IMG/VR virus record: IMGVR_UViG_3300028275_000007
Reading direction: 5' to 3' (one strand)
Length of the DNA stretch: 64,000 nt
From: a virus
Taxonomy: Duplodnaviria > Caudoviricetes
The stretch's first letter is position 1. Every line of letters begins with the position of its first letter. Shown piece after piece: positions 1 through 53,580 of this stretch. The notes below the pieces were generated by a model. It was not told where the DNA came from. It worked only from the letters and a program-made list of their open reading frames with translations, and made no database searches. The position numbers and the translations under genes are program-made.

Positions 1-29
1 AATGTATCCGTAAAAAGGAAAGATTGAGG

Positions 30-58
30 TTGATTCTTCCAGAGCGTTCTGCTAATAT
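30..58 (+). promoter_or_regulatory. sigma70-type promoter
   Basis: TTGATT-N17-TAATAT upstream of CDS 112. Confidence 0.6.
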
Positions 59-111
59 TTAAGAACGCTGAAGAACAAGTAATCAGCTATATTAACTTAA
101 AAGGAAACAAA

Positions 112-384
112 ATGAAACGCATTTCTAAAGACACCAAGACTTTCAAGGTCTTCAACGCACTTTACAATGGTGCAAAACTTACCCAATCCGAAGCAACTAA
201 GCGTTTCGGCGTAGGTAACTTGGCTGCTGAAGCAAGCCGCATTCGTCAGCATGGTTACGCTGTTTATGCCAACACTCGTGTTGCTGGCAACGGTGTGACT
301 GTTACCGAATACGAGTTGGGCCAACCAAGCCGTGAGATCGTAGCACTTGGCTACAAAGCTCGCGCAATGGGTATCACTCTTTAA
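112..384 (+). CDS. winged-helix/HTH-like phage protein, probably highly expressed
   Basis: 90 aa ORF; AAGGA RBS; HTH-like segment LTQSEATKRFGVGNLAAEASRIR; biased codons (cgt, gct, ggt). Confidence 0.75.
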   Translation: MKRISKDTKTFKVFNALYNGAKLTQSEATKRFGVGNLAAEASRIRQHGYAVYANTRVAGNGVTVTEYELGQPSREIVALGYKARAMGITL

Positions 385-407
385 GAGTCGCTCCTAAAGT
401 AAACGAT

Positions 408-422
408 CCGATTCGCTCCCGG
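408..422 (+). repeat. 15-nt repeat CCGATTCGCTCCCGG, copy 1 (CCG/CGG stem, ATTCGCTCC loop) in a 3' UTR
   Basis: Exact match to 6555-6569. Confidence 0.9.
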
Positions 423-434
423 GGACTTTCTTTG

Positions 435-461
435 AGCCGCTACTACAGCGGCTTTTCTTTT
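435..461 (+). terminator. Rho-independent terminator
   Basis: AGCCGCT-actac-AGCGGCT followed by TTTCTTTT. Confidence 0.8.
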
Positions 462-468
462 GGCTGGA

Positions 469-499
469 TGTTGCAAAAATGCCACACCGGCCGGCACTC
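469..499 (+). repeat. bipartite element TGTTGC-N6-GCCACA-N4-CCGGCACTC
   Basis: Inverted counterpart at 3683-3713. Confidence 0.7.
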
Positions 500-509
500 T
501 CCAAACCGG

Positions 510-538
510 TTGACAACTTGGGCGATCAGCTATATAAT
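510..538 (+). promoter_or_regulatory. sigma70 early promoter
   Basis: TTGACA-N17-TATAAT. Confidence 0.9.
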
Positions 539-565
539 AGAGACAGTTAGACAACGGAGCGAAGA

Positions 566-1207
566 ATGCAATTCACAGCAGATCAAGTATGGGGCCTGGC
601 TGTTAGGGCTGATGTTCAAAATGGCGGCTACTGCAAAGAGCCAGTCTATGCTGCTACTGCCACCCACGGGATAGACTACAACACCGTGATCAAGCAACCA
701 AACAAGGTCTTGGTCAAGCAATGGCTCCGCGACAATGTGCAGCCTACAGCAGAAGAGATCGCTCAGGGACAGCAATATCGCGCACAGATCAACACCTTCA
801 CCATGAAGCTGCTGACTGGGAAGATCACAGACTTCGAGCAGACTGCTCTCAAGATTGCCCAAAAGGACGAGTTCACGGGCCGTGATATGTTGGACTTCGC
901 CATTGTCAGCTGCTTGCCCCAGTCAGCTCGCATGGAGCAATCCCGGACGGAGATGAAACGAGAACTGTTCCAAAGTGAGCAACTCCCGGGCGCTGTAGGG
1001 GATACTGTTGTGATCTCTCTGACTGTAATACGTTCGCGTTACAATCCTGAATACAACAAGTTCAAGATCTACGCCCGTGCAGGTGAGTCATTTGTGGACT
1101 TTTGGTTCTCACGTGCTGTAGAAGGTGAACTGCGGGTGAAGGCCAAGATCAAACAGCATCGTGGCGATAAAACAACAGCCCTAAATTATGTGAAAATCAT
1201 CAGTTGA
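566..1207 (+). CDS. hypothetical protein, possible C-terminal OB-fold
   Basis: 213 aa ORF with promoter and GGAGCGAA RBS; beta-rich C-terminus ending TALNYVKI. Confidence 0.75.
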   Translation: MQFTADQVWGLAVRADVQNGGYCKEPVYAATATHGIDYNTVIKQPNKVLVKQWLRDNVQPTAEEIAQGQQYRAQINTFTMKLLTGKITDFEQTALKIAQKDEFTGRDMLDFAIVSCLPQSARMEQSRTEMKRELFQSEQLPGAVGDTVVISLTVIRSRYNPEYNKFKIYARAGESFVDFWFSRAVEGELRVKAKIKQHRGDKTTALNYVKIIS

Positions 1208-1232
1208 CAGGTTGGGCACCTGGTGCTACAAT
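1204..1232 (+). promoter_or_regulatory. sigma70 early promoter
   Basis: TTGACA-N17-TACAAT. Confidence 0.85.
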
Positions 1233-1281
1233 AATGATACTGAGAGAGTAATTGTTTTAACTGTTTTTTAAGCGAGGTCTT

Positions 1282-2367
1282 ATGTCAAAGCAAGTAGATG
1301 TTTCCGTTCGCCAAGTTGGTCCTAAAAACGCCAAGAAGGCAATTCGTAAGGCGGTCAATGTTCGCCGTCCAGTGTTCCTGTGGGGTCCTCCAGGCATTGG
1401 TAAATCCGATCTCGTCAAGCAGATCGGTGAAGACGCAGGTCGTGAGGTCATCGACGTCCGCCTAGCACTTTGGGAGCCCACCGACATCAAGGGTATTCCT
1501 TATTACAATGCCGATCAAGGCAAAATGACTTGGGCTCCTCCTGCAGAACTGCCTGTGGACCCAGATAGCAAGGCAATCATCTTCTTGGATGAATTGAACT
1601 CTGCTCCTCCTGCTGTTCAGGCCGCGGCCTATCAGTTGATTCTGAACCGTCGTGTTGGTACCTACGAACTGCCTAAGGGTGTTGACGTAGTCGCCGCTGG
1701 TAACCGTGAAGGTGACCGTGGTGTTACCTACCGTATGCCTGCTCCGCTGGCTAACCGTTTCGTTCACTTGGAAATGAAAGTGGACTTTGATGACTGGCAA
1801 GACTGGGCTACCTTGAACAAGGTGCATCCAGATGTCGTAGGTTATGTAGGCTTTGCCAAGCAAGACCTGTATGACTTCGATCCTAAGAGCCCTAGCAAGT
1901 CATTTGCTACTCCTCGTTCTTGGATGTTCGTTTCTGACCTGCTCAGCGACGACGATGTTGACAACGAGACTTTGGCTACCCTGATTGCGGGTGCCGTTGG
2001 TGACGGTCTGAGCAATAAGTTTATGGCTCACCGTAAGATCGCAGGCAAACTGCCTAAGGCAGAAGACATTTTGGATGGCAAGGTCAAGGACCTGCAGATC
2101 AAAGAAGTGTCTGCGATGTATTCGTTGACTGTTTCACTCTGCTACGAGTTGAAAGACCGTGCTGAGAAGAAGGTCAAGGACTGGGACGGTATGGCAGATA
2201 ACTTCTTTGCCTATATGATGGCTAACTTCCCAACAGAGTTGGTTGTTATGGGTGCAAAGACTGCTCTTACTAACTACGACCTGCCCCTGGACGCTACTAA
2301 GATGAAGTCGTTCGACGAGTTCCACAAGCGTTTCGGCAAGTATGTTCTTTCAGCAATGGAGAATTAA
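1282..2367 (+). CDS. MoxR-family AAA+ ATPase
   Basis: Walker A GPPGIGKS, Walker B IIFLDE, AAGN sensor, PLANRF arginine finger; adjacent vWA gene. Confidence 0.9.
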   Translation: MSKQVDVSVRQVGPKNAKKAIRKAVNVRRPVFLWGPPGIGKSDLVKQIGEDAGREVIDVRLALWEPTDIKGIPYYNADQGKMTWAPPAELPVDPDSKAIIFLDELNSAPPAVQAAAYQLILNRRVGTYELPKGVDVVAAGNREGDRGVTYRMPAPLANRFVHLEMKVDFDDWQDWATLNKVHPDVVGYVGFAKQDLYDFDPKSPSKSFATPRSWMFVSDLLSDDDVDNETLATLIAGAVGDGLSNKFMAHRKIAGKLPKAEDILDGKVKDLQIKEVSAMYSLTVSLCYELKDRAEKKVKDWDGMADNFFAYMMANFPTELVVMGAKTALTNYDLPLDATKMKSFDEFHKRFGKYVLSAMEN

Positions 2368-2384
2368 GACCTCGCCCATTGCGG

Positions 2385-2415
2385 GGGTGTTGTAGAAATA
2401 CAACACCCTTTTTTT
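2385..2415 (+). terminator. Rho-independent terminator that also contains the palindrome TGTTGT-N6-ACAACA
   Basis: GGGTGTTGT-agaaat-ACAACACCC followed by T7. Confidence 0.8.
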
Positions 2416-2419
2416 ACGG

Positions 2420-2448
2420 TTGACGCATTGGATTTCCGGTGCTATAAT
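2420..2448 (+). promoter_or_regulatory. sigma70 early promoter
   Basis: TTGACG-N17-TATAAT. Confidence 0.85.
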
Positions 2449-2473
2449 ATATACATACTAAGGAGAGCGACTT

Positions 2474-3679
2474 ATGGATCCAATCGTTGAGAAACTAACT
2501 ACTGCACGAGTAGGCCTGCTTTTGAAAGCACCCTTCTTCGGCAATATGGCCACCCGTATGCGTTTGATGGACGCTTCAGACTGGTGCCCTACCGCGGCAA
2601 CTAACGGCCGTGACTTTATGTATAACAAGGACTTCATTAACAAACTGTCTGTTAAGAAGTTAGAGTTCCTGCTGGCACACGAGATCTGCCACTGCGTTTT
2701 TGATCACTTTGGTCGCGTAGGTTCACGTGATCGTATGCTGTCTAACATCGCACAGGACTATGCCGTAAACCAAATCCTTGTAGACGAACGCATCGGTGAG
2801 AAGATCACCGAGGTTAAGATCTGCTACGATCCCAAGTATCGTGGTATGGCTTGGGAAGAAATCTACGATCAATTGTATGAACAAGCAGAGAAGATCCCTA
2901 TGGATCAACTGCTGAAGCAATTGGGTGACCTTTTGGACGAGCACATTAAAGAAGAAGAAGGTGCTGGTAGCCCTGGCGACAAGACCAAAGACGGCAAAGA
3001 GAAGCCTACGCTCAGTAAGGAAGAAGCTGAGAAACTGCGTCAAGAGATCAAAGAGGCTATGATCCAAAGTGCCGCGGCCGCTGGTGCAGGTAAGACTCCT
3101 GCGGGCATTATGCGTATGATCAAGACTATGACTGAGCCTAAAATGGACTGGCGCCAATTGGTTCAGCAAGAGATCCAATCTATTGTGCGTAATGACTACT
3201 CATTCGCTCGCTACAATCGTAAGAGCCAACACTCAGGTGCGGTGCTTCCTGGTATGAAAGAAGCAACTACCATTGACGTGGCTATTGCAATCGATATGTC
3301 GGGTTCGATCGGTGAAGAGGATGCAACTGTATTCCTTTCTGAGATCAAAGGCATTATGGATCAATACGAGGACTTCAAGATCAACCTGTGGTGTTTTGAC
3401 ACAGAGATCTACAATCACCAAAGCATCAGCCACGACAACGCTGAAGACTTGGTTGAGTATGAACCTCAAGGTGGCGGTGGCACAGACTTCGATGTCAACT
3501 TTACCTTTATGGAAGAGAATGACATTCGCCCTAAGAAGTTCATTATGTTCACAGACGGCTATCCCTGCGGTAGTTGGGGTCCTGAGGACTACTGCGACAC
3601 AATCTTTATCGTTAAAGGTAACACATCTGCTCAAGCACCCTTTGGTCAGACTGTTATCTACGAAAAGGAAACGGGCTAA
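2474..3679 (+). CDS. DUF2201-type metallopeptidase plus vWA-domain protein (MoxR partner)
   Basis: HEICH (HExxH) motif; MIDAS DMSGS, GGGTDF, FTDG. Confidence 0.9.
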   Translation: MDPIVEKLTTARVGLLLKAPFFGNMATRMRLMDASDWCPTAATNGRDFMYNKDFINKLSVKKLEFLLAHEICHCVFDHFGRVGSRDRMLSNIAQDYAVNQILVDERIGEKITEVKICYDPKYRGMAWEEIYDQLYEQAEKIPMDQLLKQLGDLLDEHIKEEEGAGSPGDKTKDGKEKPTLSKEEAEKLRQEIKEAMIQSAAAAGAGKTPAGIMRMIKTMTEPKMDWRQLVQQEIQSIVRNDYSFARYNRKSQHSGAVLPGMKEATTIDVAIAIDMSGSIGEEDATVFLSEIKGIMDQYEDFKINLWCFDTEIYNHQSISHDNAEDLVEYEPQGGGGTDFDVNFTFMEENDIRPKKFIMFTDGYPCGSWGPEDYCDTIFIVKGNTSAQAPFGQTVIYEKETG

Positions 3680-3682
3680 CCG

Positions 3683-3713
3683 GAGTGCCGGGGGTTGTGG
3701 CTAAAAAGCCACA
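3683..3713 (-). repeat. bipartite element TGTGGC-N6-GCCACA-N4-CCGGCACTC (inverted copy)
   Basis: Reverse complement matches 469-499 in both arms and N4 spacing. Confidence 0.7.
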
Positions 3714-3759
3714 ACTTCCTAAGTGGCCCCGCTGCTACGTGTGTGCGTGAATCTAGGTC

Positions 3760-3788
3760 TTGACAGATAGGTAGATTGGTTGTATAAT
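3760..3788 (+). promoter_or_regulatory. sigma70 early promoter
   Basis: TTGACA-N17-TATAAT. Confidence 0.9.
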
Positions 3789-3820
3789 ATAGATATCGTA
3801 ACAAAGTAAGGAGTGATAAA

Positions 3821-3952
3821 ATGCTTAAATTCTTGTTAGGAGTATTTTTAACATTGGCTGTCCTGTACCCTGCTGTTACTAAGACCATCGTTGGTAATGC
3901 TGTTGATACCACCCACACGGTTGTAACTGGAGTTATGGAGAATGCTAAATGA
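3821..3952 (+). CDS. small membrane/secreted protein (43 aa, not in ORF track)
   Basis: AAGGAG RBS; MLKFLLGVFLTLAVLYPAV hydrophobic N-terminus. Confidence 0.7.
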   Translation: MLKFLLGVFLTLAVLYPAVTKTIVGNAVDTTHTVVTGVMENAK

Positions 3953-4125
3953 GTAAAGTCGCAGATCTTGCCTATGATATCGAGCAACTGTATATCGAAG
4001 GTCATTCGCCTAAGATGATTGCTCTCATGTTGGAGTGCCCCACAGAGATGGTCTATGATTGGATCGCCGGTAACGGGCTAACCACAGACGATTCCTACGA
4101 TCCGTTTGAGACTGTAAATTCGTGA
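3949..4125 (+). CDS. hypothetical protein (58 aa, HTH-like, not in ORF track)
   Basis: ATGA overlap with upstream gene; MSKVADLAYDIEQLYIEGHSPKMIALMLECPTEMVYDWI. Confidence 0.7.
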   Translation: MSKVADLAYDIEQLYIEGHSPKMIALMLECPTEMVYDWIAGNGLTTDDSYDPFETVNS

Positions 4126-4388
4126 GCAAATTAGAATACTACGCCCGCCCCCTTGTAGCCTTTGATCCAAGGAACAAGATGCACAGACGCTACTACAACC
4201 AATTCCTAGAGCATATGAGTTGGGGTCACTGTCCGGTTCGGTTCATCTGCCCGGAATCTAACGGTTCGGATTTGGTCAAAATGATCCAAACAGAGCTGCT
4301 CAAATACTATGTTGAGAAAGAGTTTAAGGTCAAGAAGAAACCCGCCAAACTCAAAGGTTATCCACATATCGCTAAAAAAACTGGTTGA
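4122..4388 (+). CDS. hypothetical protein
   Basis: 88 aa; GTGA overlap with upstream stop. Confidence 0.7.
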   Translation: MSKLEYYARPLVAFDPRNKMHRRYYNQFLEHMSWGHCPVRFICPESNGSDLVKMIQTELLKYYVEKEFKVKKKPAKLKGYPHIAKKTG

Positions 4389-4413
4389 CACTTTGGCTGA
4401 TCCTTGCTATAAT
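4385..4413 (+). promoter_or_regulatory. sigma70 early promoter
   Basis: TTGACA-N17-TATAAT. Confidence 0.9.
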
Positions 4414-4435
4414 TGACACATAGTTAGGAGAGCGA

Positions 4436-4576
4436 ATGGAATACACCGTGATTTACCCCAATGGCAACTCCCAGAAGTTCTACGTTCGGGCTGTAGCGGA
4501 AATGTACGCCACAATCAACGGCGGCCGTGTTGTAGGAAAACCTGAGTTGAAATTGGTTGACAAATTGGCTGCTTGA
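4436..4576 (+). CDS. hypothetical protein (46 aa, not in ORF track)
   Basis: Own promoter; AGGAGAGCGA RBS; MEYTVIYPNGNSQKFYV. Confidence 0.7.
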   Translation: MEYTVIYPNGNSQKFYVRAVAEMYATINGGRVVGKPELKLVDKLAA

Positions 4577-4585
4577 TCATACAAT
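4557..4585 (+). promoter_or_regulatory. sigma70 early promoter
   Basis: TTGACA-N17-TACAAT. Confidence 0.85.
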
Positions 4586-4608
4586 AGAACTATGATAAGG
4601 AGCGAACG

Positions 4609-4857
4609 ATGATAACAGAAAAACAGCGTGTTGTAAATGCCCTAAAGGGTTGGCAGTTCGTGCGTGGAACCCATGGTTGCTTGTATGATCGTGGATCCGC
4701 AGACTCCTACTACGGTAGGGCACGTGATCCTCACTACGGTGGAGTGGGAGGCGATTCCGGCGCCCGAGTCTCGGTCAACGACGAGGCTTCAGTGGCTGAA
4801 TACATGGCCGGCTACAACGACAACGAGCGTGATGGTAACAAGAAGGATTGGCGATGA
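4609..4857 (+). CDS. hypothetical phage protein
   Basis: 82 aa; promoter and GGAGCGAA RBS; YDRGSADSYYGR. Confidence 0.75.
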   Translation: MITEKQRVVNALKGWQFVRGTHGCLYDRGSADSYYGRARDPHYGGVGGDSGARVSVNDEASVAEYMAGYNDNERDGNKKDWR

Positions 4858-5051
4858 CCCCTACGGAATTTCAATACATTCAACGAGCCGTCAAGGCCTT
4901 GGAAACACCCATGAGCCTTCCAGAGAGGATTAAGGTGGAACGCACTATGGCCCAGATTCTGAGTCGCTCCGCTGACACTTTGGAACAGAATTTGGTTGAC
5001 AACATCGAAGATCGGTTGTATAATACTAATACTGAAACAGAAGGAGCGTGA
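4854..5051 (+). CDS. hypothetical protein
   Basis: ATGA overlap with the 4857 stop. Confidence 0.55.
   Translation: MTPTEFQYIQRAVKALETPMSLPERIKVERTMAQILSRSADTLEQNLVDNIEDRLYNTNTETEGA
4996..5024 (+). promoter_or_regulatory. sigma70 early promoter
   Basis: TTGACA-N17-TATAAT. Confidence 0.9.
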
Positions 5052-5052
5052 T

Positions 5053-5676
5053 ATGCCAAATTGGTGCAACAACACATTGACCCTTGAGCACGATGATCCA
5101 GCAATGATTACTCGTGCCAAAGAAGCACTGGATCGTGGAGAGTTCCTGCAGGAGTTCATTCCTGTGCCCAAAGAACTCACAGAAACCATGGCTGGTTCCT
5201 ACGGGGACGGAGACAAGCAGGCCGCATTGGAAGCACAGATGAAGTCCAATGTTGAAAAGTTTGGCTACAGCAACTGGTATGACTACTGCGTCGGCGAGTG
5301 GGGAACCAAATGGGATGTAGGTGGCGATGGACAGACTGATATTCACCCTGATGGTAAGACGCTGTTCACTACCTTTGATTCAGCATGGTCTCCACCCGTG
5401 AATGCTTATCAGAAGTTAGAGCAACTAGGCTTCCGAGTTTCTGCACAGTTCTATGAATCAGGTATGGCTTTTGCTGGTGTATATGAGGACGGCAACTGCG
5501 AGGACTTTAGCCTCGAAGGCATGACTGCTGATGAGATCGAACGGGATTACCCAGAACTAGACGAAGCGTTCTGCATCGCTGAGGCTATCCGTGAGTTCCA
5601 GGAAGAGGAAGAAGAAGAACTCACAGAGTGGATCAAAGATGGTGTTGACAAGAACCTGGAGTTGAAGTCTCTATGA
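5053..5676 (+). CDS. DUF1281/YubB-like ferredoxin-fold protein
   Basis: MPNWCNN start after AAGGAGCG; WYDYCVGEWGTKWD and FDSAWSPP motifs; start moved from 4996 because the promoter lies there. Confidence 0.75.
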   Translation: MPNWCNNTLTLEHDDPAMITRAKEALDRGEFLQEFIPVPKELTETMAGSYGDGDKQAALEAQMKSNVEKFGYSNWYDYCVGEWGTKWDVGGDGQTDIHPDGKTLFTTFDSAWSPPVNAYQKLEQLGFRVSAQFYESGMAFAGVYEDGNCEDFSLEGMTADEIERDYPELDEAFCIAEAIREFQEEEEEELTEWIKDGVDKNLELKSL

Positions 5677-5987
5677 CAATGACTGTGGTCAAAATGGACC
5701 GACGCTATGACGGGCACGATCGCTTCAGTCATAGAGTCGAGTTCACAGGCTATCAGCCACATGGCCAGAAGCAGACTCGAATTGCACAATGGGTTCGAGC
5801 TCGCAACTGGCTGTGGCAACAGTTTGGTCCTTCAGGAGAATTGTTCTGCGCCCGGCCCACTTACTTCGATGGACATCAGCCGGTTTGGGCCTGGGATGCA
5901 GAGAAATCATCGCTGTATCTGAGCAAGGAAGCCTACACGATGTTTATGTTACGCAAGGAATTTTGGGAAAATGTCGAGAACCTTTAA
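5673..5987 (+). CDS. hypothetical protein
   Basis: 104 aa; ATGA overlap. Confidence 0.7.
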   Translation: MTMTVVKMDRRYDGHDRFSHRVEFTGYQPHGQKQTRIAQWVRARNWLWQQFGPSGELFCARPTYFDGHQPVWAWDAEKSSLYLSKEAYTMFMLRKEFWENVENL

Positions 5988-6177
5988 CTATCGATTAGAA
6001 GTCATCTGTGGAGGTTCAGGCACAGCGGACGAGGTCCGGGTCGAGGAAATGCTCGATTTGGCCTTTCAGGATCTGGTCTATGACGACGAGTTTATCGCCG
6101 CCCTAGACGAGAAAGAGTCTGTGACCATTCGAGTGTCTAAATTGGACAACCGAATGGTTGACAGAAGTGGCACTTGA
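5971..6177 (+). CDS. hypothetical acidic protein
   Basis: 68 aa; GGGA upstream. Confidence 0.6.
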   Translation: MSRTFNYRLEVICGGSGTADEVRVEEMLDLAFQDLVYDDEFIAALDEKESVTIRVSKLDNRMVDRSGT

Positions 6178-6186
6178 TGCTACATT
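6158..6186 (+). promoter_or_regulatory. sigma70 early promoter
   Basis: TTGACA-N17-TACATT. Confidence 0.8.
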
Positions 6187-6240
6187 TATAACATACCAAA
6201 AAGGTATATTTTTTAACACACACAGAAAGAGGTAATTTAA

Positions 6241-6552
6241 ATGGCTACAGATAAGAAGTTTGCGGTTGCTGGTGTTTCCACTCAAGCAGGTAAGACCAAG
6301 GTTCGTTTCGCTAATGACGTGATGCGCATCAAGATCCTTGCCAAGAATGGTCACACTGACATCAACCTCGTGGATCTTCCACGTGAAATGACCAAGGCTG
6401 AGATTGGTGCCTATATGGTCGAAACTGGCTTTGGCAAGGGCAATGCTGCTGTAGAAGCTGCTGTTGCTTACATTGTCAAGAAGAACCCTTTGGCCACAGC
6501 TGCCAAGGTAAGTAAGACTACTGTCGCGAAGACAGAAGCTATCGCCGAATAA
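6241..6552 (+). CDS. basic Ala/Lys-rich phage protein, possible nucleic-acid binder
   Basis: 103 aa; GAGGT RBS; strong codon bias; K/A/T-rich tail. Confidence 0.8.
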   Translation: MATDKKFAVAGVSTQAGKTKVRFANDVMRIKILAKNGHTDINLVDLPREMTKAEIGAYMVETGFGKGNAAVEAAVAYIVKKNPLATAAKVSKTTVAKTEAIAE

Positions 6553-6554
6553 AC

Positions 6555-6569
6555 CCGATTCGCTCCCGG
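6555..6569 (+). repeat. 15-nt repeat CCGATTCGCTCCCGG, copy 2, in a 3' UTR
   Basis: Exact match to 408-422; 2 nt after the stop; CCGAT...ATCGG extended stem. Confidence 0.9.
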
Positions 6570-6585
6570 TATCGGCGGTCTTAAC

Positions 6586-6620
6586 ACCCTACTGTATACA
6601 CGTACAGTAGGGTTTTTTTT
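6586..6620 (+). terminator. Rho-independent terminator
   Basis: ACCCTACTGTA-tacacg-TACAGTAGGGT followed by T run. Confidence 0.9.
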
Positions 6621-6622
6621 GG

Positions 6623-6651
6623 TTGACAACTGGCGTTTTTGAATATATAAT
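6623..6651 (+). promoter_or_regulatory. sigma70 early promoter
   Basis: TTGACA-N17-TATAAT. Confidence 0.9.
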
Positions 6652-6670
6652 TAAACAATAGGAGAGCGCG

Positions 6671-7063
6671 ATGGAACTTATTGATTGGATCACACTAGCT
6701 ATATTCTTTGCCCTGGGTTGGTTCCTAGGTAACAGGGCTGCGACCCGCATTCATCTCACTGCTTTCTCCATGATCCTCAAGGAGTTGGGCGTGAAGAATC
6801 AGGATTTGATTCGTGTGGCTCGTGCCAATGGCCTCACTATCCCTGAACCTGAGCATGATGAACCTGAGTTAGATCACATCGAAATCAAGGTGGAAAAGCA
6901 CGGTGAAATGCTCTATGCTTTCCGCAAGGACAACGATCGGTTCCTAGGCCAAGGCACTTCACGTGAAGAACTCATCAATCGTATGGCTGAGTCACTGCGC
7001 AATGTTCGCTGTACCGTAGTGGAAGGCAATGAGTATATGATCAAGGATAGCCCTACAAGCTAA
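6671..7063 (+). CDS. hypothetical protein with N-terminal transmembrane segment
   Basis: 130 aa; WITLAIFFALGWFLG; GGAGAGCG RBS. Confidence 0.75.
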   Translation: MELIDWITLAIFFALGWFLGNRAATRIHLTAFSMILKELGVKNQDLIRVARANGLTIPEPEHDEPELDHIEIKVEKHGEMLYAFRKDNDRFLGQGTSREELINRMAESLRNVRCTVVEGNEYMIKDSPTS

Positions 7064-7081
7064 AGGGTTATTACAAATTGG

Positions 7082-7110
7082 TTGACAGATTGGCTGTTTG
7101 GGCATACAAT
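7082..7110 (+). promoter_or_regulatory. sigma70 early promoter
   Basis: TTGACA-N17-TACAAT. Confidence 0.85.
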
Positions 7111-7135
7111 ATACACATACTAACAAGGAGCGAAG

Positions 7136-7318
7136 ATGTTAACAAACAAGCAAAACCAGCAACTGCTCAGGGCTGTGGAACTACTGCAGGAAGCAGACGC
7201 ATTGGTACAGTCAGCAATGGGCGCCAGCGACGAATGCTACTACATCCACACACAAATTGAAAACTCAGCGGATGACGTGCTGGACTTTATACAAGAGAAC
7301 ACTGAAGAGGCAGCGTAA
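7136..7318 (+). CDS. hypothetical helical protein
   Basis: 60 aa; AAGGAGCGAA RBS. Confidence 0.75.
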   Translation: MLTNKQNQQLLRAVELLQEADALVQSAMGASDECYYIHTQIENSADDVLDFIQENTEEAA

Positions 7319-7629
7319 TGGAAGCCCTACAGGAAACCACTGGGGGGCAGTTTCCTGCCCACACTTACCTACTCGATGGCACAACGCTGGTTGCCTATAT
7401 CAAGCAAGGGGAAACTACGCCATTCTATTTCAAGTCAGGAATCAAAGGCTTCGACAAGCGAGGCCGGAAGTTCCAAACCGTAACACCAAACCCATTCAAA
7501 GTAAAGGCATCAAATGACACACGCACAGTCCAAGGCTCAAACGGCAAAACTTACACAGTCAACGACGCAGAGAAAACCTGTACCTGTCCAGGATTTACAT
7601 TTAGAGGTGCCTGCAAACACCTGGGCTAA
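7318..7629 (+). CDS. SWIM zinc-finger protein
   Basis: YTV...CTCPGF....ACKH. Confidence 0.8.
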   Translation: MEALQETTGGQFPAHTYLLDGTTLVAYIKQGETTPFYFKSGIKGFDKRGRKFQTVTPNPFKVKASNDTRTVQGSNGKTYTVNDAEKTCTCPGFTFRGACKHLG

Positions 7630-7634
7630 TATGG

Positions 7635-7663
7635 TTGACAGATTGGTAAAAGGCTGTTAAAAT
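7635..7663 (+). promoter_or_regulatory. sigma70 promoter, probably leaderless transcript
   Basis: TTGACA-N17-TAAAAT-N6-ATG. Confidence 0.8.
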
Positions 7664-7669
7664 ACACAT

Positions 7670-7894
7670 ATGATAAACAACTTACTCCAATGGTCCGGTA
7701 CTGCATTCCTCTTAGGAATGTATGTGGTTATGAACTTCTTCCACACTCTGCATCCTCTGCAGATCGTCTTGGGACTCTGCGGTGGCCTGTGCTATTTTGC
7801 TTGGAGCTACCGTGTGGCAAATAAGCCACAGATGATCGTTAACCTAGCGGGCATATCCGTATGCGCCGCAGGGTTATTCCACTATTTTGGTTGA
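7670..7894 (+). CDS. small multi-pass membrane protein
   Basis: 74 aa; three hydrophobic segments. Confidence 0.7.
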   Translation: MINNLLQWSGTAFLLGMYVVMNFFHTLHPLQIVLGLCGGLCYFAWSYRVANKPQMIVNLAGISVCAAGLFHYFG

Positions 7895-7919
7895 CAGTTT
7901 GGGCTAAAGATCCTATACT
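7891..7919 (+). promoter_or_regulatory. sigma70 early promoter
   Basis: TTGACA-N17-TATACT. Confidence 0.85.
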
Positions 7920-7946
7920 ATAAACACTGAAACAAAGGAGCGAACA

Positions 7947-8060
7947 ATGATCAAACTCATCGGATGGATTGCAGTTACCTGGGCTCTGTTCCACTTTGGC
8001 ATTGCTCAGGCCATCTTAATCACGGCCGCTGCTGCGGGAACCATAGTCTTCGGAGGTTGA
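7947..8060 (+). CDS. small hydrophobic protein (37 aa, not in ORF track)
   Basis: AAGGAGCGAA RBS; MIKLIGWIAVTWALFHFGIAQAILITAAAAGTIVFGG. Confidence 0.65.
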   Translation: MIKLIGWIAVTWALFHFGIAQAILITAAAAGTIVFGG

Positions 8061-8061
8061 T

Positions 8062-8322
8062 GTGTCAGGTTGGGTAGTCTACGATCAGCGTTCGGGTCAT
8101 ATGCAGAAGTATTACAAGCTGGCTGCAACTGCGAAAAGGATCGTCACACAGCACAACACAGAACGCGAGTATGATTGGGGCGATGGCTCAGGCAGCTACA
8201 CCTATCGTCCTCAGAGTCTTTGGGCCTGCTGCTCCTATGCAGACTACGAAGGGATTCTAATGGGTCTGCGTGGGGAAGCGTTTAAGATGTGGCAGTTTGT
8301 GCGCAATAACCCTAGAGGTTGA
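8062..8322 (+). CDS. hypothetical protein
   Basis: GGAGG RBS with GTG start. Confidence 0.65.
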   Translation: MSGWVVYDQRSGHMQKYYKLAATAKRIVTQHNTEREYDWGDGSGSYTYRPQSLWACCSYADYEGILMGLRGEAFKMWQFVRNNPRG

Positions 8323-8338
8323 CAGGTCTTCCAAAAGA
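8309..8338 (+). repeat. 30-bp direct repeat, copy 1 (promoter-containing)
   Basis: ACCCTAGAGGTTGACAGGTCTTCCAAAAGA identical to 8556-8585. Confidence 0.95.
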
Positions 8339-8347
8339 CAGTATAAT
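8319..8347 (+). promoter_or_regulatory. sigma70 early promoter
   Basis: TTGACA-N17-TATAAT. Confidence 0.9.
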
Positions 8348-8379
8348 TGACACATACACAAACAAACAAGGAGCGAAAG

Positions 8380-8553
8380 ATGATCAATCAAGACCTTAGA
8401 GTAATCGCAGGAATCCAAGAACGCCTGGGCCAACTGCCCGTGCTGGAAACCCTGATCTATATCGAAAACAACACTGGCGAGTTCACTATCGCTGAACTGC
8501 GTAGTTTCTACAACGTGATGTCACAATTCCGTGCGCTGTTTGCTGCCGCCTAA
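8380..8553 (+). CDS. hypothetical protein (57 aa)
   Basis: ATG 8380 after AAGGAGCGAA; the track start at 8347 lies in the -10 box. Confidence 0.7.
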   Translation: MINQDLRVIAGIQERLGQLPVLETLIYIENNTGEFTIAELRSFYNVMSQFRALFAAA

Positions 8554-8555
8554 AG

Positions 8556-8585
8556 ACCCTAGAGGTTGACAGGTCTTCCAAAAGA
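8556..8585 (+). repeat. 30-bp direct repeat, copy 2
   Basis: Identical to 8309-8338. Confidence 0.95.
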
Positions 8586-8594
8586 TCGTATAAT
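8566..8594 (+). promoter_or_regulatory. sigma70 early promoter
   Basis: TTGACA-N17-TATAAT. Confidence 0.9.
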
Positions 8595-8623
8595 ACACGC
8601 ATATTAACAAATAGGGAGCGCAA

Positions 8624-8860
8624 ATGAAACACAACGAAGTTCAACTCTACAAGAACATCGGCTCTATCCAGGCAGTCGAGGGTGACGAAGGCCGCTACTA
8701 CTTCTACCGTCACTTTGCCACAGGTAACACCTGCGATGAAGACACCATCAAAGGCGCCAAAGAGATGTTGGATTGGGAAGAAAAGAACTATCAAGAAGTA
8801 CAGGCCGCGATCCGTGTGCTTCAGGGCCGTGGCTATCGTGTGTTCAAAGAAGTGGCCTAA
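8624..8860 (+). CDS. hypothetical protein
   Basis: 78 aa; GGGAGCG RBS. Confidence 0.75.
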   Translation: MKHNEVQLYKNIGSIQAVEGDEGRYYFYRHFATGNTCDEDTIKGAKEMLDWEEKNYQEVQAAIRVLQGRGYRVFKEVA

Positions 8861-8865
8861 ATTGG

Positions 8866-8894
8866 TTGACAAACGGCCAGTTCGATCGTATAAT
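8866..8894 (+). promoter_or_regulatory. sigma70 early promoter
   Basis: TTGACA-N17-TATAAT. Confidence 0.9.
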
Positions 8895-8926
8895 ATACAC
8901 ATACACTAAACAACTAGGAGCTGAAA

Positions 8927-9109
8927 ATGGTTACAGAAGGTCAGGGAATGTTTGTCGTCATAGTAGGACTTGTGATCACTATGTTGGGCACAGGTGGTGT
9001 AGAGAATAGCATCACCAACACAGAGCTGCTACAGGCCCTAGCTGTTGCAGTAACTGGACTAGGTGCAATGTATGCAGGTACACTTATGATCCAGAGGGCT
9101 CAGCAATGA
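8927..9109 (+). CDS. small two-TM membrane protein
   Basis: 60 aa; AGGAGCTGAA RBS; two hydrophobic helices. Confidence 0.7.
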   Translation: MVTEGQGMFVVIVGLVITMLGTGGVENSITNTELLQALAVAVTGLGAMYAGTLMIQRAQQ

Positions 9110-9333
9110 CTATAGAACTACACGGACTTAATCGTCAACAACATCAGATCGCAGACATGATCTGGAGCTGTGAATCGCAAGCAGATGTTGAGCGGCTTAT
9201 ACGGAACCTGCCCCCCGCATATCAAAAGGATGCTGTAGTCATACACGATCTAATGATCGCTGCTGTGATGGATCAACATATGGAGATCACTGAAGATGTT
9301 CGTGCGCTTATTCGTAGCCTTAGCTCTAGCTAA
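9106..9333 (+). CDS. hypothetical protein
   Basis: 75 aa; ATGA overlap. Confidence 0.7.
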   Translation: MTIELHGLNRQQHQIADMIWSCESQADVERLIRNLPPAYQKDAVVIHDLMIAAVMDQHMEITEDVRALIRSLSSS

Positions 9334-9496
9334 TCTAGCTGCCTGTACAGCCTACGATCGTAGAGACGCAGCTTGGTCACGGCCCTATCATCAGAAGTTT
9401 GATCAGATTCCCAATCAACCTGGCGAGGCTCTTCGACGCTGTGGAGGTCAGGTTAGACCTGAACTGAGGACACCGGAGATGACCGACCGGTGCTGA
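9296..9496 (+). CDS. putative small lipoprotein
   Basis: Hydrophobic N-terminus with LAAC lipobox; two further Cys. Confidence 0.55.
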   Translation: MFVRLFVALALANLAACTAYDRRDAAWSRPYHQKFDQIPNQPGEALRRCGGQVRPELRTPEMTDRC

Positions 9497-9658
9497 GGTG
9501 GTGGGGGGTGGCCGGTATAGTGTGTATACTATAGTAGTAGTTTTACTAGCGGTATGGGGTCTAAAATCACCACCCTGAAATGAAAAGTACTCCACCCAAA
9601 TTTTTTGCGCGGCCAAATTTTTGACCTCTAAAACCCTTTTCTTAGTATATACTAGTCT

Positions 9659-10159
9659 ATGCTTTATACACCCAAATATCAACAGATGCTGGTTCAAGAA
9701 CATCTGCGCAGACCCTGGGGCGATGTTGGTCATCGTTACTCTGAACATATCTTAGAGCTTTATCATCAATACTCCTGTGCGCACATCTTGGACTACGGCT
9801 GTGGACAAGCTCTGCTCAGTAAAAAAATCGGCGATCTAGTCCCTGTGGATAACTATGATCCCGGAATCCCAGCTTATTCTACTCTGCCACAACCTAGAGA
9901 TCTCGTAGTCTGCGTAGATGTCTTAGAGCACATAGAACCTCAGTGTATTCACTCAGTCTTGGCACATCTACAGTCTTTGACTCTAAAAGTAGCCTATGTT
10001 AACATATCGTCAGTGCCTGCACGTAGTTCATTCCCTAACGGACAAAATCTTCATCTTATACAAGAACCCCTAGAATGGTGGCTAAGTCAGCTTAGTCAGT
10101 ACTTTACTCTTGGCTCTGTTACTAACAATCTAGTTATATGCCACAGTACGCACTCCTAA
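9659..10159 (+). CDS. class I SAM-dependent methyltransferase
   Basis: ILDYGCGQA motif I; DLVVCVDVLEHIEP. Confidence 0.8.
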   Translation: MLYTPKYQQMLVQEHLRRPWGDVGHRYSEHILELYHQYSCAHILDYGCGQALLSKKIGDLVPVDNYDPGIPAYSTLPQPRDLVVCVDVLEHIEPQCIHSVLAHLQSLTLKVAYVNISSVPARSSFPNGQNLHLIQEPLEWWLSQLSQYFTLGSVTNNLVICHSTHS

Positions 10160-50121: not shown

Positions 50122-53100
50122 TTAAATCTCTCCTGTGTTCTTGACACGTAATGGGATGTAAATGAATTCAACAGCCTTAACTGGTTCAATTGCAATGTCA
50201 ACATATAGTTCATTACGATCGATTCTGCTAGGAGTGTTGTTGCTTTCATCACAAACAACTGCGAAGTCATAAATTGCTCTCAAACCTACCAACTCTAATA
50301 ACAAACTTTCTGCTGCCTGTTTGATCTCATCACGTGTGATCTTGTCATTTGGTTCAAAAATGTATGGACGAGCTAGTTTGTTCAACTGGCTGCGTAGGTA
50401 TACAACTAAACGTGCTACGTTGATTCTGTCTAATGCAGAAGCATTTCTTGCACGAGTCTTTTGACCATATGCAACTAAACCTACACCATTAAAGAATGGA
50501 ATTGGGTTAATCTTTAGATCATATAGTGTATCACGTTGACCTTCGTTTAGAGCTACGGTCTGGAATTCACCTGTCATTGCGTCAATATAACCAACTGCTG
50601 TTGCGTTAGTAATACCACCGCGTCTTGTACCTGCTGGAGCAAACCAAGGATAACTTACGTTGTCACTTAGTGCGATTGTTTTCAACATCATATGTGATGC
50701 TGGAACAACTGCGCCTGCACCGCTTAGGTCTGTTGTGTAACCGTTTGGATAGTAAGTTGCTAGATATTCGTCATATGTAACAATACCATCATCACCGTTG
50801 TCTGTTACTAGGTTAGCGTTAGTACCCCAAGTTGTTAGGCTTGTTGCATCTGCTGCTAAACGCAATGGTGTGTCACCAATTACAAAAGCTGTAATTCCAC
50901 GGTCAATGTTTAAGTTAACTAGGTTGCTCATTAGCTCAGGATATCCTGGGCAAGCAATCAAGTTAAAGTTGCGACGTTCTGTATCACGGATTTCGCTGCT
51001 TGTATCAACAACACTCTTAAGAGCTTGTGTAACAACCTTACGTTGTGCGTGACGACCAAATGTACCAGAACCGTCTTCGTTATTACCAGATGCTGTCACC
51101 CAACGATCTGTCCAATACGCTTCCATTGACAAACCAGAACCGCTTACAAATGCACTACCTGCTAGGGTAGCTGTACTTGTTCTTGGGTTATCGCTAGCTG
51201 TATCAATGTAACCGTTCATATATTTCTTAACGTTTCCGCCGCTTCTGCGTAGATTCCATAGCAACATACCTTTTGGATATAGTGCTGGATCTGGAGCGTC
51301 TGGATCTAAGAAGTTATTCTGCAATAGGTCTTCGATAGTAGACATTGCATTTGTTGTGCCTGTTGTGTTCCAACGTGCATCAGCAAACAAGATACCCTCT
51401 TCTGTTGTTTGATCAGTTTTATCAACTAATTCCCAACGTTGAGAAACATCCGCAATATCAGTTAGATTATTATTAAATCTGTAGATAGTTGGGAAGTTTT
51501 CCATATCGGCTGTGCTGATCCATAGGTCACCTGTTTGTGTGCTGCCTGCTTGATATGGATTGCTAGCTGAAACTAGTGGAGCATAACCAATTCTTGTTGA
51601 TGTCGCGCTTTCTGCGTACTGAGCAGAAGCGTGTCTATAACCAACCCAAGTTGCGCCATTGTGTACCATAACGTCAACTTCTGAGAAGTTAGGGTTGTAC
51701 CACATTTGTCCATCTTGTGGCTCATTTAATGGAGCATCACCGCTTGCTGCAAATCTTGGATTGCTTGCTGCCAATGGCATCCAACCAGAAGCTAGATAAT
51801 CATATCCTGCGGCTGATTGAGCTTCATATAAGTTTTCAGTTCCAGATAATGTGTTGATACTATAAGGTGTAAACAATCCACCAATTGGGCTACCTGTTCC
51901 GTCTGTTAGACTGAAATCTCCGCCTAGTTTGTGTGAAATAACCAACTTAGCTGAGGTTGAACTTACTGTTGTTACAGAAGCTACAATGTTGGTAAATCCT
52001 GCTGCGTTAATTGCTGTTGCAATTGCATCAGCATCTTCGCTGTTGCCAGCTGCTGAGAAATTAATTGTAACTGCTGTGTCTAAAGTTGCTTGTCCTTTTA
52101 ATGATTCTGCTAGATCAAAACTGTATGGGCCGGCAGCTAGTGTGCTGTCTTTAATAACTGCTGATGTAATGCTTGTTACAGCATTTGCAGAAACGTTTCT
52201 TTTCCATACTCTAAATTCAGCAGTTTCTGGAGTTGCATCAAATCCAGCAGCTTCTGTAGCATTTGATTGTACAAATAAAGAATCTTTGGAAATATTTGCA
52301 CCACCGCCACTACGATCTAGATAATAGTTTGCTGCACCAGTTGATGTGTGGATTGGAGCTTCGTATGATGCCCAAGAAAGTGTTCCTGCGCTCCAACGCT
52401 TAACTCTCCAACGAGCGCCGTTGTTTGGTTCAGTTGTTTTAATCCATACAGAACCAGTTGGGTTTCCGCCGACTGTGCCAACGTTGTCAGAAATCTTAAA
52501 TGCTGGAACAGAAGTATGTGGAGTTTGTTGTAATGCTGGGCTCAAATAAGTACCAGCTGTGATACCCAATGTGCTCCAGTTTGCTGTACCATTTTCTAAT
52601 TTAACTGCACCGTCAGCACCAGTTGAATCGCCTGCATCACCGTCAGCAGCTGATGTGCCGTTAGAATAAATGTACAATCTGTTGTTAATTGCTTGAGCAC
52701 TTACACCAGTAATTGCTGCTGCATTAATGTTTGAAGCAATAGTAGCTACTGTTCCGCCAGCAATTAAACTGTTGTTAACATATAAGTTACCACTTATCGA
52801 ACCTGAATATGCTGAACCAGATGCTACTGGCCAACTTGCTTTCCAGTCTGTAGAACCTACTAGTACCCACTGACCTGCATCAACAGCGTCAACTCCGCCA
52901 GTCGAAGCTGGAGCACCAGCTGATTTAAAGTAAACTCTTGCAAACTCTTCGTTTGCACCAAATGATCCATCACCTGTAACGGTTTGGAAAACTACAGCGT
53001 AGTCACCAATTGCACCAACTGATGTTTTTGGAGCATTGTTAGAAATTTTTGCTGTATCTGCGTCGGTTAATACTAATGGAACTTTGTTTGTAAATTTCTG

Positions 53101-53580
53101 CCCGCCAACTACTGTTGGTGCAGATCCATTCCATTCTTGAATACCCCAAGTTGTTGCTTGAGTGTCAATCCACCATTGACCGTTTGTTGGGTTCGCTCCC
53201 GGGGCGTCTACTTGAGCCTCTAGTTCGTCTAAGTTAATATCAGCACGAACGATAAATGCCGCGTTGCTAACACCCAATAAACTATATGCTGCTAATAATC
53301 CGTATTCGTTTCTTTCTGAACCGTGTACAGGAGTCGAACTCGCTGTCTGTTCAAAGAAAGGAACACCGAAGAAATCTGTTAGATCTCTCTGACTGGTTAA
53401 TTTAAATGCCTTACCAGCATTGGCTTTTGTTGTTGCGGACGCGGTACCTGTTCCCGATCCGTTTGCTTTATCTTGCGCTGTAGCTACTACGATAAGAGGA
53501 GTAGTACCAGGTTCTGCTGGTGTATAAAAACTCTCGTCGATAACTGTAACCGCTACGCCCGGTGATTGTAATGTTGCCAT
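50122..53580 (-). CDS. gp18: tail sheath protein with large insertion (1152 aa)
   Basis: LQSPGVAVTVIDES; WFAPAGTRRG; DRINVARL; FEPND; DIAIEPVKAVEFI. Confidence 0.95.
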   Translation of the reverse strand: MATLQSPGVAVTVIDESFYTPAEPGTTPLIVVATAQDKANGSGTGTASATTKANAGKAFKLTSQRDLTDFFGVPFFEQTASSTPVHGSERNEYGLLAAYSLLGVSNAAFIVRADINLDELEAQVDAPGANPTNGQWWIDTQATTWGIQEWNGSAPTVVGGQKFTNKVPLVLTDADTAKISNNAPKTSVGAIGDYAVVFQTVTGDGSFGANEEFARVYFKSAGAPASTGGVDAVDAGQWVLVGSTDWKASWPVASGSAYSGSISGNLYVNNSLIAGGTVATIASNINAAAITGVSAQAINNRLYIYSNGTSAADGDAGDSTGADGAVKLENGTANWSTLGITAGTYLSPALQQTPHTSVPAFKISDNVGTVGGNPTGSVWIKTTEPNNGARWRVKRWSAGTLSWASYEAPIHTSTGAANYYLDRSGGGANISKDSLFVQSNATEAAGFDATPETAEFRVWKRNVSANAVTSITSAVIKDSTLAAGPYSFDLAESLKGQATLDTAVTINFSAAGNSEDADAIATAINAAGFTNIVASVTTVSSTSAKLVISHKLGGDFSLTDGTGSPIGGLFTPYSINTLSGTENLYEAQSAAGYDYLASGWMPLAASNPRFAASGDAPLNEPQDGQMWYNPNFSEVDVMVHNGATWVGYRHASAQYAESATSTRIGYAPLVSASNPYQAGSTQTGDLWISTADMENFPTIYRFNNNLTDIADVSQRWELVDKTDQTTEEGILFADARWNTTGTTNAMSTIEDLLQNNFLDPDAPDPALYPKGMLLWNLRRSGGNVKKYMNGYIDTASDNPRTSTATLAGSAFVSGSGLSMEAYWTDRWVTASGNNEDGSGTFGRHAQRKVVTQALKSVVDTSSEIRDTERRNFNLIACPGYPELMSNLVNLNIDRGITAFVIGDTPLRLAADATSLTTWGTNANLVTDNGDDGIVTYDEYLATYYPNGYTTDLSGAGAVVPASHMMLKTIALSDNVSYPWFAPAGTRRGGITNATAVGYIDAMTGEFQTVALNEGQRDTLYDLKINPIPFFNGVGLVAYGQKTRARNASALDRINVARLVVYLRSQLNKLARPYIFEPNDKITRDEIKQAAESLLLELVGLRAIYDFAVVCDESNNTPSRIDRNELYVDIAIEPVKAVEFIYIPLRVKNTGEI

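Follow-up and report, generated by a model that had tools for sequence, protein, structure and literature searches.

A conserved 3'UTR hairpin with a loop complementary to early Shine-Dalgarno regions in a clade of uncultured T4-like jumbo phages

Behind an early operon of an uncultured phage we found a predicted RNA hairpin that is conserved among related phages and whose C-rich 9-nt loop, AUUCGCUCC, would serve as an anti-Shine-Dalgarno (anti-SD) sequence for the early ribosome-binding word (A)GGAGCGA(A). As judged by comparison of related contigs, loop and SD word have co-changed through at least four versions, and a functional pairing between the two is well supported. Our preferred reading, to which we assign a probability of roughly 0.55, is that this 3' untranslated region (3'UTR) hairpin pairs with early SDs in trans, and possibly in cis as well, and lowers translation of the early class. 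The design is new within the known types of anti-SD regulator, and it is widespread in an uncultured phage lineage.

The hairpin and its candidate targets in the window

The DNA analyzed here (the window, 64,000 nt) derives from a 110-kb IMG/VR record with an estimated completeness of 31% and is shown as its reverse strand. From its genes, the phage can be classed as an uncultured T4-like, jumbo-type myovirus. The genome encodes a myovirus, and its large terminase (TerL) is closest to that of the Pseudomonas jumbo phage PA5oct (55% identity) and also near those of Sinorhizobium phage Phosso and Agrobacterium phage Atu_ph07. TerL and an nrdC.10-like ATPase bear out the T4-like affiliation given in the initial annotation. 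A megablast search with window positions 1-4000 against cultured phages returned no match; DNA of the phage is present in many riverine metagenomes and metatranscriptomes. The early region extends from about -5200 to 8700 in window coordinates and holds 14 genes with GGAGCG at SD distance. Each of these genes has a consensus or near-consensus sigma70 promoter directly upstream, followed by a short A/C-rich leader, and window positions 1-9000 contain 14 promoters that match 11-12 of the 12 consensus positions.

We reread the sequence of the element and found all coordinates of the initial annotation to be correct. The parts of the element and the target sites described below lie on the + strand. 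The gene upstream, which we call F1 (112-384), encodes a 90-aa winged-helix protein of the HTH_39 family (Pfam HTH_39, E 1.4e-5; phrog_4973) and has a plain AAGGA ribosome-binding site (RBS) without GGAGCG, as had been noted. Its stop codon, TAA at 382-384 as read from the sequence, is followed directly by a first, unstructured anti-motif copy, AGTCGCTCCT at 386-395, which is the complement of GAGCGACT; within it, read from the window sequence, GTCGCTCCT occupies 387-395 and AGTCGCTC occupies 386-393. The anti-SD hairpin spans 396-429. Its inner stem pairs CCG (408-410) with CGG (420-422) around the 9-nt loop AUUCGCUCC (DNA ATTCGCTCC, 411-419), such that the C-rich word complementary to the SD sits in an apical loop closed by a G-C pair. 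The outer stem places AAAGT at 396-400 (RNA AAAGU) opposite ACTTT at 425-429 (RNA ACUUU). A terminator scan identified an intrinsic terminator at 434-461, with an 8-bp GC-rich stem (434-454), a 5-nt loop, and a U run. The same layout of stop codon, hairpin, and own terminator is found in relatives. Beyond the terminator lie the sigma70 early promoter of the next gene (510-538; 12/12, TTGACA-17-TATAAT) and a target-type SD, GGAGCGAA, at 556-563, two bases 5' of the ATG of gene 566-1207.

The 15-mer made up of inner stem and loop, CCGATTCGCTCCCGG, occurs exactly at 408-422 and again at 6555-6569, each time between a stop codon and a terminator. The second copy is likewise a hairpin apex. It begins 2 nt beyond the stop codon of a second gene, F2 (6241-6552). 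Two stems, CCGAU/AUCGG and GCCG/CGGC, enclose it, and a terminator follows at 6586-6613. The flanks of the two copies are unrelated, as are the upstream proteins F1 and F2. The window holds about a dozen repeat families of at least 15 nt, and thus an exact 15-mer repeat is not rare in itself.

The SD word GGAGCGAA was counted nine times in the window against 1.0 expected, a number reached in 0 of 100 shuffles, and its complement is found on the + strand at 412-419 and 6559-6566. Five + strand copies stand just 5' of the starts 566, 4609, 7136, 7947, and 8380, and the earlier claim that the complement of the loop precedes five early starts is therefore borne out by five exact sites at SD distance. 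The four target-type SDs beyond that of gene 566 were assigned by word count, SD distance, and duplex prediction (4599-4606 for gene 4609, 7127-7134 for gene 7136, 7937-7944 for gene 7947, and 8370-8377 for gene 8380). Duplexes between the 15-mer and the five target leaders are predicted at about -14 kcal/mol (-14.2 for the gene 566 leader), while those with the leaders of F1 and F2 reach only -3.1 and -4.6 kcal/mol. A variant SD, GAGCGACT, precedes the DUF2201/vWA-like gene 2474-3679 at 2465-2472, with a predicted duplex of -14.0 kcal/mol. The first anti-motif copy at 386-395 and its match to the leader of this vWA gene, both proposed initially, are real in the sequence, but the copy is poorly conserved: it is kept in three of 44 distinct F1 3'UTRs from related contigs, the window itself being a fourth case. 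Taken alone, the window is suggestive and not decisive, and the significance of the element rests on comparative data.

Conservation of the hairpin and of the genes that carry it

We scanned IMG/VR with the exact 15-mer and retrieved more than 117 stretches among the matches listed. By a rough estimate, about 80-110 chance matches to any 15-mer would be expected in a collection of this size, and a dozen or more of the matches listed are clearly unrelated coding sequence. About 85 stretches among the matches listed, however, share one common anatomy, in which the 15-mer forms a hairpin apex just 3' of a stop codon. The flanking stems vary between contigs yet remain complementary, and the hairpin either stands upstream of a separate terminator or is itself the terminator hairpin with a T run. 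In one clade of T4-like/jumbo myoviruses, well over 100 IMG/VR contigs have this hairpin, always in the 3'UTR and on the coding strand of three unrelated early gene families.

Across 146 distinct G-ATTCGCTCC-C instances the loop is invariant, and an unconstrained minimum free energy (MFE) fold presents it as an apical 9-nt loop in 104 of them. The closing pairs covary (CCG/CGG, CUG/CAG, GUG/CAC, AGG/CCU, UGG/CCA, and UUG/CAA), and further copies in the same contigs keep the loop with closing CG/CG, CUG/CAG, GUG/CAC, CCUAGG/CCUAGG, and CCUUGG/CCAAGG. A covariance model based on 19 instances that share one geometry was run against both strands of the 64-kb window with filters off and gave two credible matches only, at 396-434 (32.4 bits, E 1.1e-5) and at 6555-6569. 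In 576 kb of contigs collected via a protein and not via the motif, the model had 41 matches, 41 of 41 on the coding strand. Paired cells made up 93.7% of the model-based alignment, compared with 66% in shuffles and 34-49% in slid controls, and double changes affecting both sides were seen at all seven outer pairs; because this alignment was fitted to the covariance model, it favors structure somewhat. An Rfam cmscan of window positions 1-10000 with E up to 1 gave only an unrelated weak match at 7377-7466 and none at the element.

The hairpin of the initial annotation is therefore backed by the model match and by stems that covary around an invariant loop, but it is not the MFE fold of 382-465, a segment whose fold z-score (-0.19) is no better than that of shuffles. 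As a hairpin, copy 1 of the window is weak: in the predicted ensemble its seed is about 46% unpaired, with an opening cost of 2.5-5.3 kcal/mol. The seed of copy 2 is 93% unpaired.

Two of the three gene families keep the element without using its target word. For F1, defined as the orthologues of 112-384 in the 90-aa HTH_39 family, the CGCTCC element is present in the 3'UTR in 44 of 44 distinct contexts. For F2, a protein of about 100 aa (orthologues of 6241-6552), it lies 0-3 nt after the stop in 10 of 10 distinct contexts, all from contigs fetched by the exact 15-mer; F2 homologues in contigs fetched by the third family mostly lack the hairpin. GGAGCG was found in none of the leaders of these genes (0/44 for F1 and 0/10 for F2 orthologues), which instead have AAGGAAA or AGAGGT-type sites. 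The lack of the motif that had been noted for the host gene thus extends to these two families.

The third family, F3, consists of AAA ATPases (phrog_1250; about 295 aa) that resemble T4-type nrdC.10. Its 3'UTRs often have two tandem motif hairpins, the last of which is the terminator. In window coordinates F3 lies at about -1503 to -406, has an GGAGCGAA leader, and overlaps the next gene at its 3' end. A terminator search on this strand from the F3 promoter (about -1562) to 434 found none that was credible. With the overlap and the lack of a credible terminator before 434, hairpin 1 would be the 3' end of an F3-to-F1 unit. F1 itself has no match of the icaR type between the two ends of one mRNA, its RBS being AAGGA, but the GGAGCGAA leader of F3 would provide one if F3 and F1 are cotranscribed.

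Co-change of loop and SD word across clades

We examined the SD word in the motif-selected contigs (GC 0.44-0.53), which have 447 GGAGCG-N(2-8)-ATG/-GTG sites on the hairpin strand in 0.97 Mb. A later count of 478 distinct sites gave the consensus A-GGAGCG-A(79%)-A(63%), with the ATG 3-6 nt away. Being tied to the start codon, the word is part of the RBS, and most early genes in the hairpin contigs have (A)GGAGCGA(A) as their SD region. The CG(AA) extension of this word cannot pair with the canonical 16S 3' tail, GAUCACCUCCUUA. An A stands at position 7 in only 79% of sites and at position 8 in only 63%, and U is not preferred at position 9; pairing with the loop would therefore often be limited to 6-7 bp. 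The A 5' of GGAG is strongly conserved, which the loop does not explain.

For comparison across clades we used 80 contigs gathered via alignment of the F3 protein (57-100% identity), a sample that was not motif-selected. Automatic loop extraction from global folds of 250-nt UTRs missed most class A hairpins, and word-based tests were used instead. In clade A, where the RBS is GGAGCG, the F3 3'UTR contains CGCTCC at 31 of 38 loci and GCCCTC at 0 of 38, whereas GCCCTC is present at seven of seven loci in the clade with a GAGGGC RBS (Fisher p 5e-7 versus clade A, with the loci being related). In this second clade the early SD is (C)GAGGGCA(A), with 34 sites in 54 kb, and the loop of the F3 3'UTR hairpin reads UGCCCU(CG) at all seven of the seven loci. 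The class A pair thus consists of the loop AUUCGCUCC and the SD GGAGCGAA, and the class B pair of UGCCCUCG and CGAGGGCA. Two more classes emerged when F3 leaders were compared with their own 3'UTRs, one combining GAGCUAGACA with a loop containing UGUCUAGCUC and the other combining ACGGAGCAA with UUGCUCCGU.

The four leader classes, GGAGCGA, GAGGGCA, AGCUAGA, and CGGAGCA, were tabulated against their reverse complements in the 3'UTR. The table is strictly diagonal, with 24, 3, 2, and 4 loci on the diagonal (33) and 0 off it. Complements of at least 8 nt between leader and 3'UTR were found at 25 of 66 loci, whereas 200 shuffles averaged 1.8 such loci and never exceeded 6; the reverse, same-sense, and complement-only controls gave 2, 4, and 1. 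Because the loci of any one class are kin, what counts as independent evidence comes down to four or five matched switches, each of them altering several positions in both partners. Seed and targets thus covary among relatives, a check that the initial annotation had named, in the form of four class-matched pairs with no cross-class match. That two conserved reverse-complement words change together makes RNA-RNA pairing the simplest explanation.

Outside these clades, the motif is absent from PA5oct, the nearest cultured relative by TerL, where only chance matches with one mismatch were found. The classical T4-type phages T2 and Aeromonas 44RR2.8t showed no leader/3'UTR complement at their orthologous nrdC.10-like gene. 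An 8-nt leader/3'UTR match in PAC2 lies within a stem arm and was taken as chance.

Proposed mechanism, alternatives, and known systems

We propose that the hairpin would act either within the complete mRNA or as part of a 3' fragment that the terminator protects. In trans, its loop would form 7-8 bp, at about -14 kcal/mol, with the SD regions of some 14 early mRNAs; in cis, it may also bind the GGAGCGAA leader at the head of its own operon. By analogy with icaR (PMC3868564), an SD covered in this way should be closed to the 30S subunit. Pairing would thereby occlude 30S binding and reduce translation of the early class, and it may promote mRNA decay. We infer pairing in vivo, its repressive effect, and a role in early-gene dosage control or shut-off from the sequences compared here. 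The initial annotation had envisaged shut-off by a small RNA of about 75 nt, and this scenario is plausible. With two hairpins facing some 14 or more target mRNAs, the stoichiometry would require the 3' fragment to accumulate. Riverine metatranscriptome contigs (Logan) span 210-594 across terminator, spacer, and promoter, although such contigs show neither RNA ends nor strand; the breaks between unitigs are strain-variant positions.

If pairing works as proposed, it would amount to class-wide translational control by a 3'UTR element of a phage mRNA, of which we found none described in phages, with a regulator and its target sites co-evolving across a viral lineage. It would also account for an early SD extension that the ribosome cannot read. 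A broader version of this idea, which we hold tentatively and at somewhat short of even odds, is that early genes carry a private address code. The SD extension (CGAA, GCA, CUAGACA, or CAA, depending on the clade) would then serve mainly for recognition by the phage anti-SD loop, as an RNA counterpart of RegA/RegB; code and decoder would have co-evolved through at least four versions, and the decoder would hop between the 3'UTRs of abundant early transcripts. In practical terms, this gives a sequence rule for contigs of uncultured phages, by which the early regulon is predicted from a loop word that reads as the reverse complement of the early SD word. A natural orthogonal set exists in the matched pairs of classes A and B, which makes the proposal testable with reporters even without a known host.

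The alternative with most in its favor is strictly cis pairing of the icaR or hbs type, end to end within one mRNA, with the loop acting only on the leader of its own unit and affecting the translation or stability of this one mRNA rather than many targets in trans. Covariation was scored between F3 leaders and F3 3'UTRs, i.e., within one mRNA, and in F3 units the 5' end always carries the word and the 3' end its complement. In this genome F3, with its GGAGCGAA leader, opens the operon that ends at hairpin 1 with no credible terminator between them, and the complementary word is for the most part confined to the F3 leader in classes C and E. The precedents are icaR (PMC3868564) and hbs (PMC5737220). 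In classes A and B, however, the SD word is common to most early genes, many of them in units ending at terminators without the element (for example, the unit of terminator 2383-2410). F1 and F2, each with a promoter of its own and a leader free of the motif, nevertheless always retain the hairpin (F2 in the contigs fetched by the 15-mer), and at one locus, L171, the loop also matches a second, different leader. At the level of sequence, cis action would be favored by the layout of the F3 units, and trans action both by F1 and F2, where the element is present and the word is avoided, and by the many motif genes whose units end without the element. We consider an exclusively cis role unlikely. 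A different cis arrangement, in which read-through would mask the SD of the next gene, was rejected; it fits F1, where the next gene mostly has GGAGCG, but not F2 (2-3 of 10).

Complementarity alone gives no sign of the effect, and pairing might instead be protective or activating, with GGAG shielded from a RegB-like endoribonuclease or other decay, or with mRNAs tethered, and with no repression. Early SDs are a known attack point in T4-type phages, since T4 RegB cuts GGAG in them (PMC3014915). An 8-bp duplex over the SD would be expected to block the 30S subunit too, however, and the anti-SD systems known from 3'UTRs and loops act as repressors (PMC3868564). We therefore regard a protective role as improbable.

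It could also be that the complementarity is a by-product, the loop being the site of an RNA-binding protein or the word being a double-stranded DNA site or recombination signal of cassettes like the PeSL units of T4-type phages. An invariant 9-nt loop would be expected of a protein site as well, yet one protein cannot read a word and its complement on RNA, and four co-changing classes would demand a change of specificity each time. For a DNA-level signal, the sense 15-mer is found 5' of the ATG of unrelated genes in AT-rich contigs, and the region is arranged like a PeSL unit, with a stem-loop, a near-perfect sigma70 promoter, an SD, and an ATG (PMC2839356, PMC4122927). A DNA site, however, needs neither a covarying hairpin around the antisense copies only, nor sense copies set at a fixed, SD-like spacing (with peaks at 3-6 nt past GGAGCG), nor a strict strand asymmetry, and we give this explanation little weight. 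Chance or composition, whereby C-rich loops and purine-rich SDs are complementary anyway with nothing specific selected, is hardly credible: an exact 15-mer repeat in 64 kb and database matches of the number and kind seen here (by the rough estimate above, and among the matches listed) would not be unusual, but the match runs past the SD core into the clade-specific extensions, the shuffle, reverse, same-sense, and complement-only controls are far lower, and the loop is invariant while the stems vary.

Among described systems, the phage element comes closest to two of Staphylococcus aureus, the C-rich loops of RNAIII and the 3'UTR of icaR. In icaR, a C-rich UCCCCUG in the 3'UTR is complementary to the SD region and blocks initiation, and the duplex is cleaved by RNase III (PMC3868564; Ruiz de los Mozos et al., 2013). 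F3 units resemble icaR in having a matching SD at the 5' end and an anti-SD at the 3' end. The phage word differs in lying in an apical hairpin loop, often as part of a terminator hairpin; its SD word is common to a temporal class of about 14 genes, and the element is also found behind genes whose own SD lacks the word. Further differences are the phage setting, the co-change of loop and SD through at least four versions, and the role of RNase III, which would not be expected from an 8-bp duplex. The 5'/3'UTR interaction of hbs is a close analogue (PMC5737220). Enterobacterial 3'UTR-derived small RNAs such as CpxQ, SroC, and DapZ, a class reviewed in PMC5502269, share with the phage element a conserved seed and the position between a stop codon and its own intrinsic terminator. 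Their seed is in the single-stranded 5' part, whereas that of the phage is in a hairpin loop.

In S. aureus, RNAIII and the Rsa small RNAs pair with the SDs of several targets through apical loops rich in C (UCCC), among them the loop of terminator hairpin H14, and one RNA has several such loops. The phage hairpins are similar in their apical C-rich anti-SD loops and in the tandem loops of F3 3'UTRs. They differ in that RNAIII and the Rsa RNAs are stand-alone bacterial RNAs directed at a generic SD, whereas the phage loops lie in mRNA 3'UTRs and match a private, extended SD word. The endoribonuclease RegB and the translational repressor RegA of T4 down-regulate the early class posttranscriptionally via the SD/initiation region (PMC3014915); they are functional analogues, but they are proteins, and here the recognizing partner would be RNA. 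Our literature search for a phage anti-SD 3'UTR element found no description of one, and a full-text search with the motif strings returned primers only.

The PeSL cassettes of T4-type phages combine a terminator, an early promoter, and an SD and are described as recombination substrates (PMC2839356, PMC4122927). The stretch 434-566 has the same layout of stem-loop, near-consensus sigma70 promoter, short leader, SD, and ATG, which is repeated through the plastic early region; units that fit are 434-454 / 510-538 / 556-566 and 6586-6613 / 6623-6651. Unlike the cassettes, the conserved phage hairpin occurs upstream of, or within, only some terminators. A term search for complementarity in the available part of the 2014 PeSL paper (PMC4122927) found no mention. 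Concerted evolution of terminator-promoter-SD cassettes of the PeSL type (PMC4122927) could inflate the uniformity of the motif.

Three further candidates were set aside. Mimicry of a tRNA T-arm was dropped by eye, since the would-be T-loop has the wrong base at position 58. An unusual 16S tail was likewise dropped by eye because different clades would need different tails. Many phyla have, around position 765 of the 16S rRNA, a word identical to the SD word described here (GGGAGCGAA); this site was judged unlikely as a target, as it is paired in the ribosome. Elsewhere, in other clades, the hairpin loops read UGCCCU, CUAGCUCCUC, UUGCUCCG, and CCUCC.

Promoters, terminators, and predicted nesting of early transcripts

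Promoters are abundant in the early region. Between positions 1 and 9000 of the window, 14 sigma70 promoters match the consensus at 11 to 12 of 12 positions, and 8 additional sigma70 promoters lie upstream of the window start, where about 5.3 kb was covered. Terminators are sparse across these same two segments, occurring at 434, 2383, and 6586. This combination of many promoters and few terminators suggests that early transcripts would be nested, with 3' ends in common, an architecture like that of PeSL, the terminator, early promoter, and Shine-Dalgarno (SD) cassette of T4-type phages. Located among the early genes is a pair (1282-3679) consisting of a MoxR-type AAA ATPase (AAA_5/AAA_3) followed by a DUF2201 metallopeptidase-like/VWA-like protein.

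A hairpin adjoining the F2 stop codon

In the F2 family (window gene 6241-6552), the anti-SD hairpin starts 0 to 3 nt after the stop codon, both in the window (6550-6569) and in 10 orthologues (L025, L042, L053, L061, L078, L080, L094, L101, L104, and L119). A ribosome terminating at the F2 stop would cover or unfold the adjoining hairpin, and seed availability could in this way be coupled to translation of the host gene.

Matches to the 15-mer in other settings

The 15-mer at the hairpin apex (408-422 and 6555-6569) is also found in sense form, CCGGGAGCGAATCGG, 0 to 14 nt upstream of start codons (ATG or GTG) belonging to unrelated genes, in AT-rich IMG/VR contigs (L026, L028, L029, L040, L049, L050, and L106) and in L011, L081, and L085. 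The genes behind it encode signal-peptide proteins resembling curli CsgF and endonuclease VII-like proteins. The sense 15-mer is followed in L050 by a second GGAGCGAA and in L106 by a near copy, AGAGCGAA. Hence SDs of the GGAGCGAA type may also serve beyond the clade of this phage, or the hits may be family-level ones that arose by chance. Within the window, TGGGTTCGCTCCCGG (53188-53202, plus strand) matches the 15-mer with 3 mismatches, probably by chance, and falls within a long minus-strand ORF (50122-53580).

Unusual loops behind the F3 ATPase gene

Two relatives (L171 and L180) carry, in the 3'UTR of F3, a 19-nt loop complementary to two different leaders within the same contig, that of F3 (GAGCUAGACA) and that of another early gene, CAGUGAG(GAG). 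In L196, the loop of the F3 3'UTR hairpin consists of repeated CU (CUCCUCUCUCCUCUCUCUCCUC) and represents an extreme case of an anti-SD-like loop; neighboring genes there have GAGGAG or GGAGAA sites. In the PA5oct-like Pseudomonas phage PAC2 (L202), the F3-homologue leader is AGGAGTAGCAT, and the hairpin behind that gene holds an 8-nt complement of this leader in its 3' arm. The complement falls in the stem and not the loop, and the match may be due to chance.
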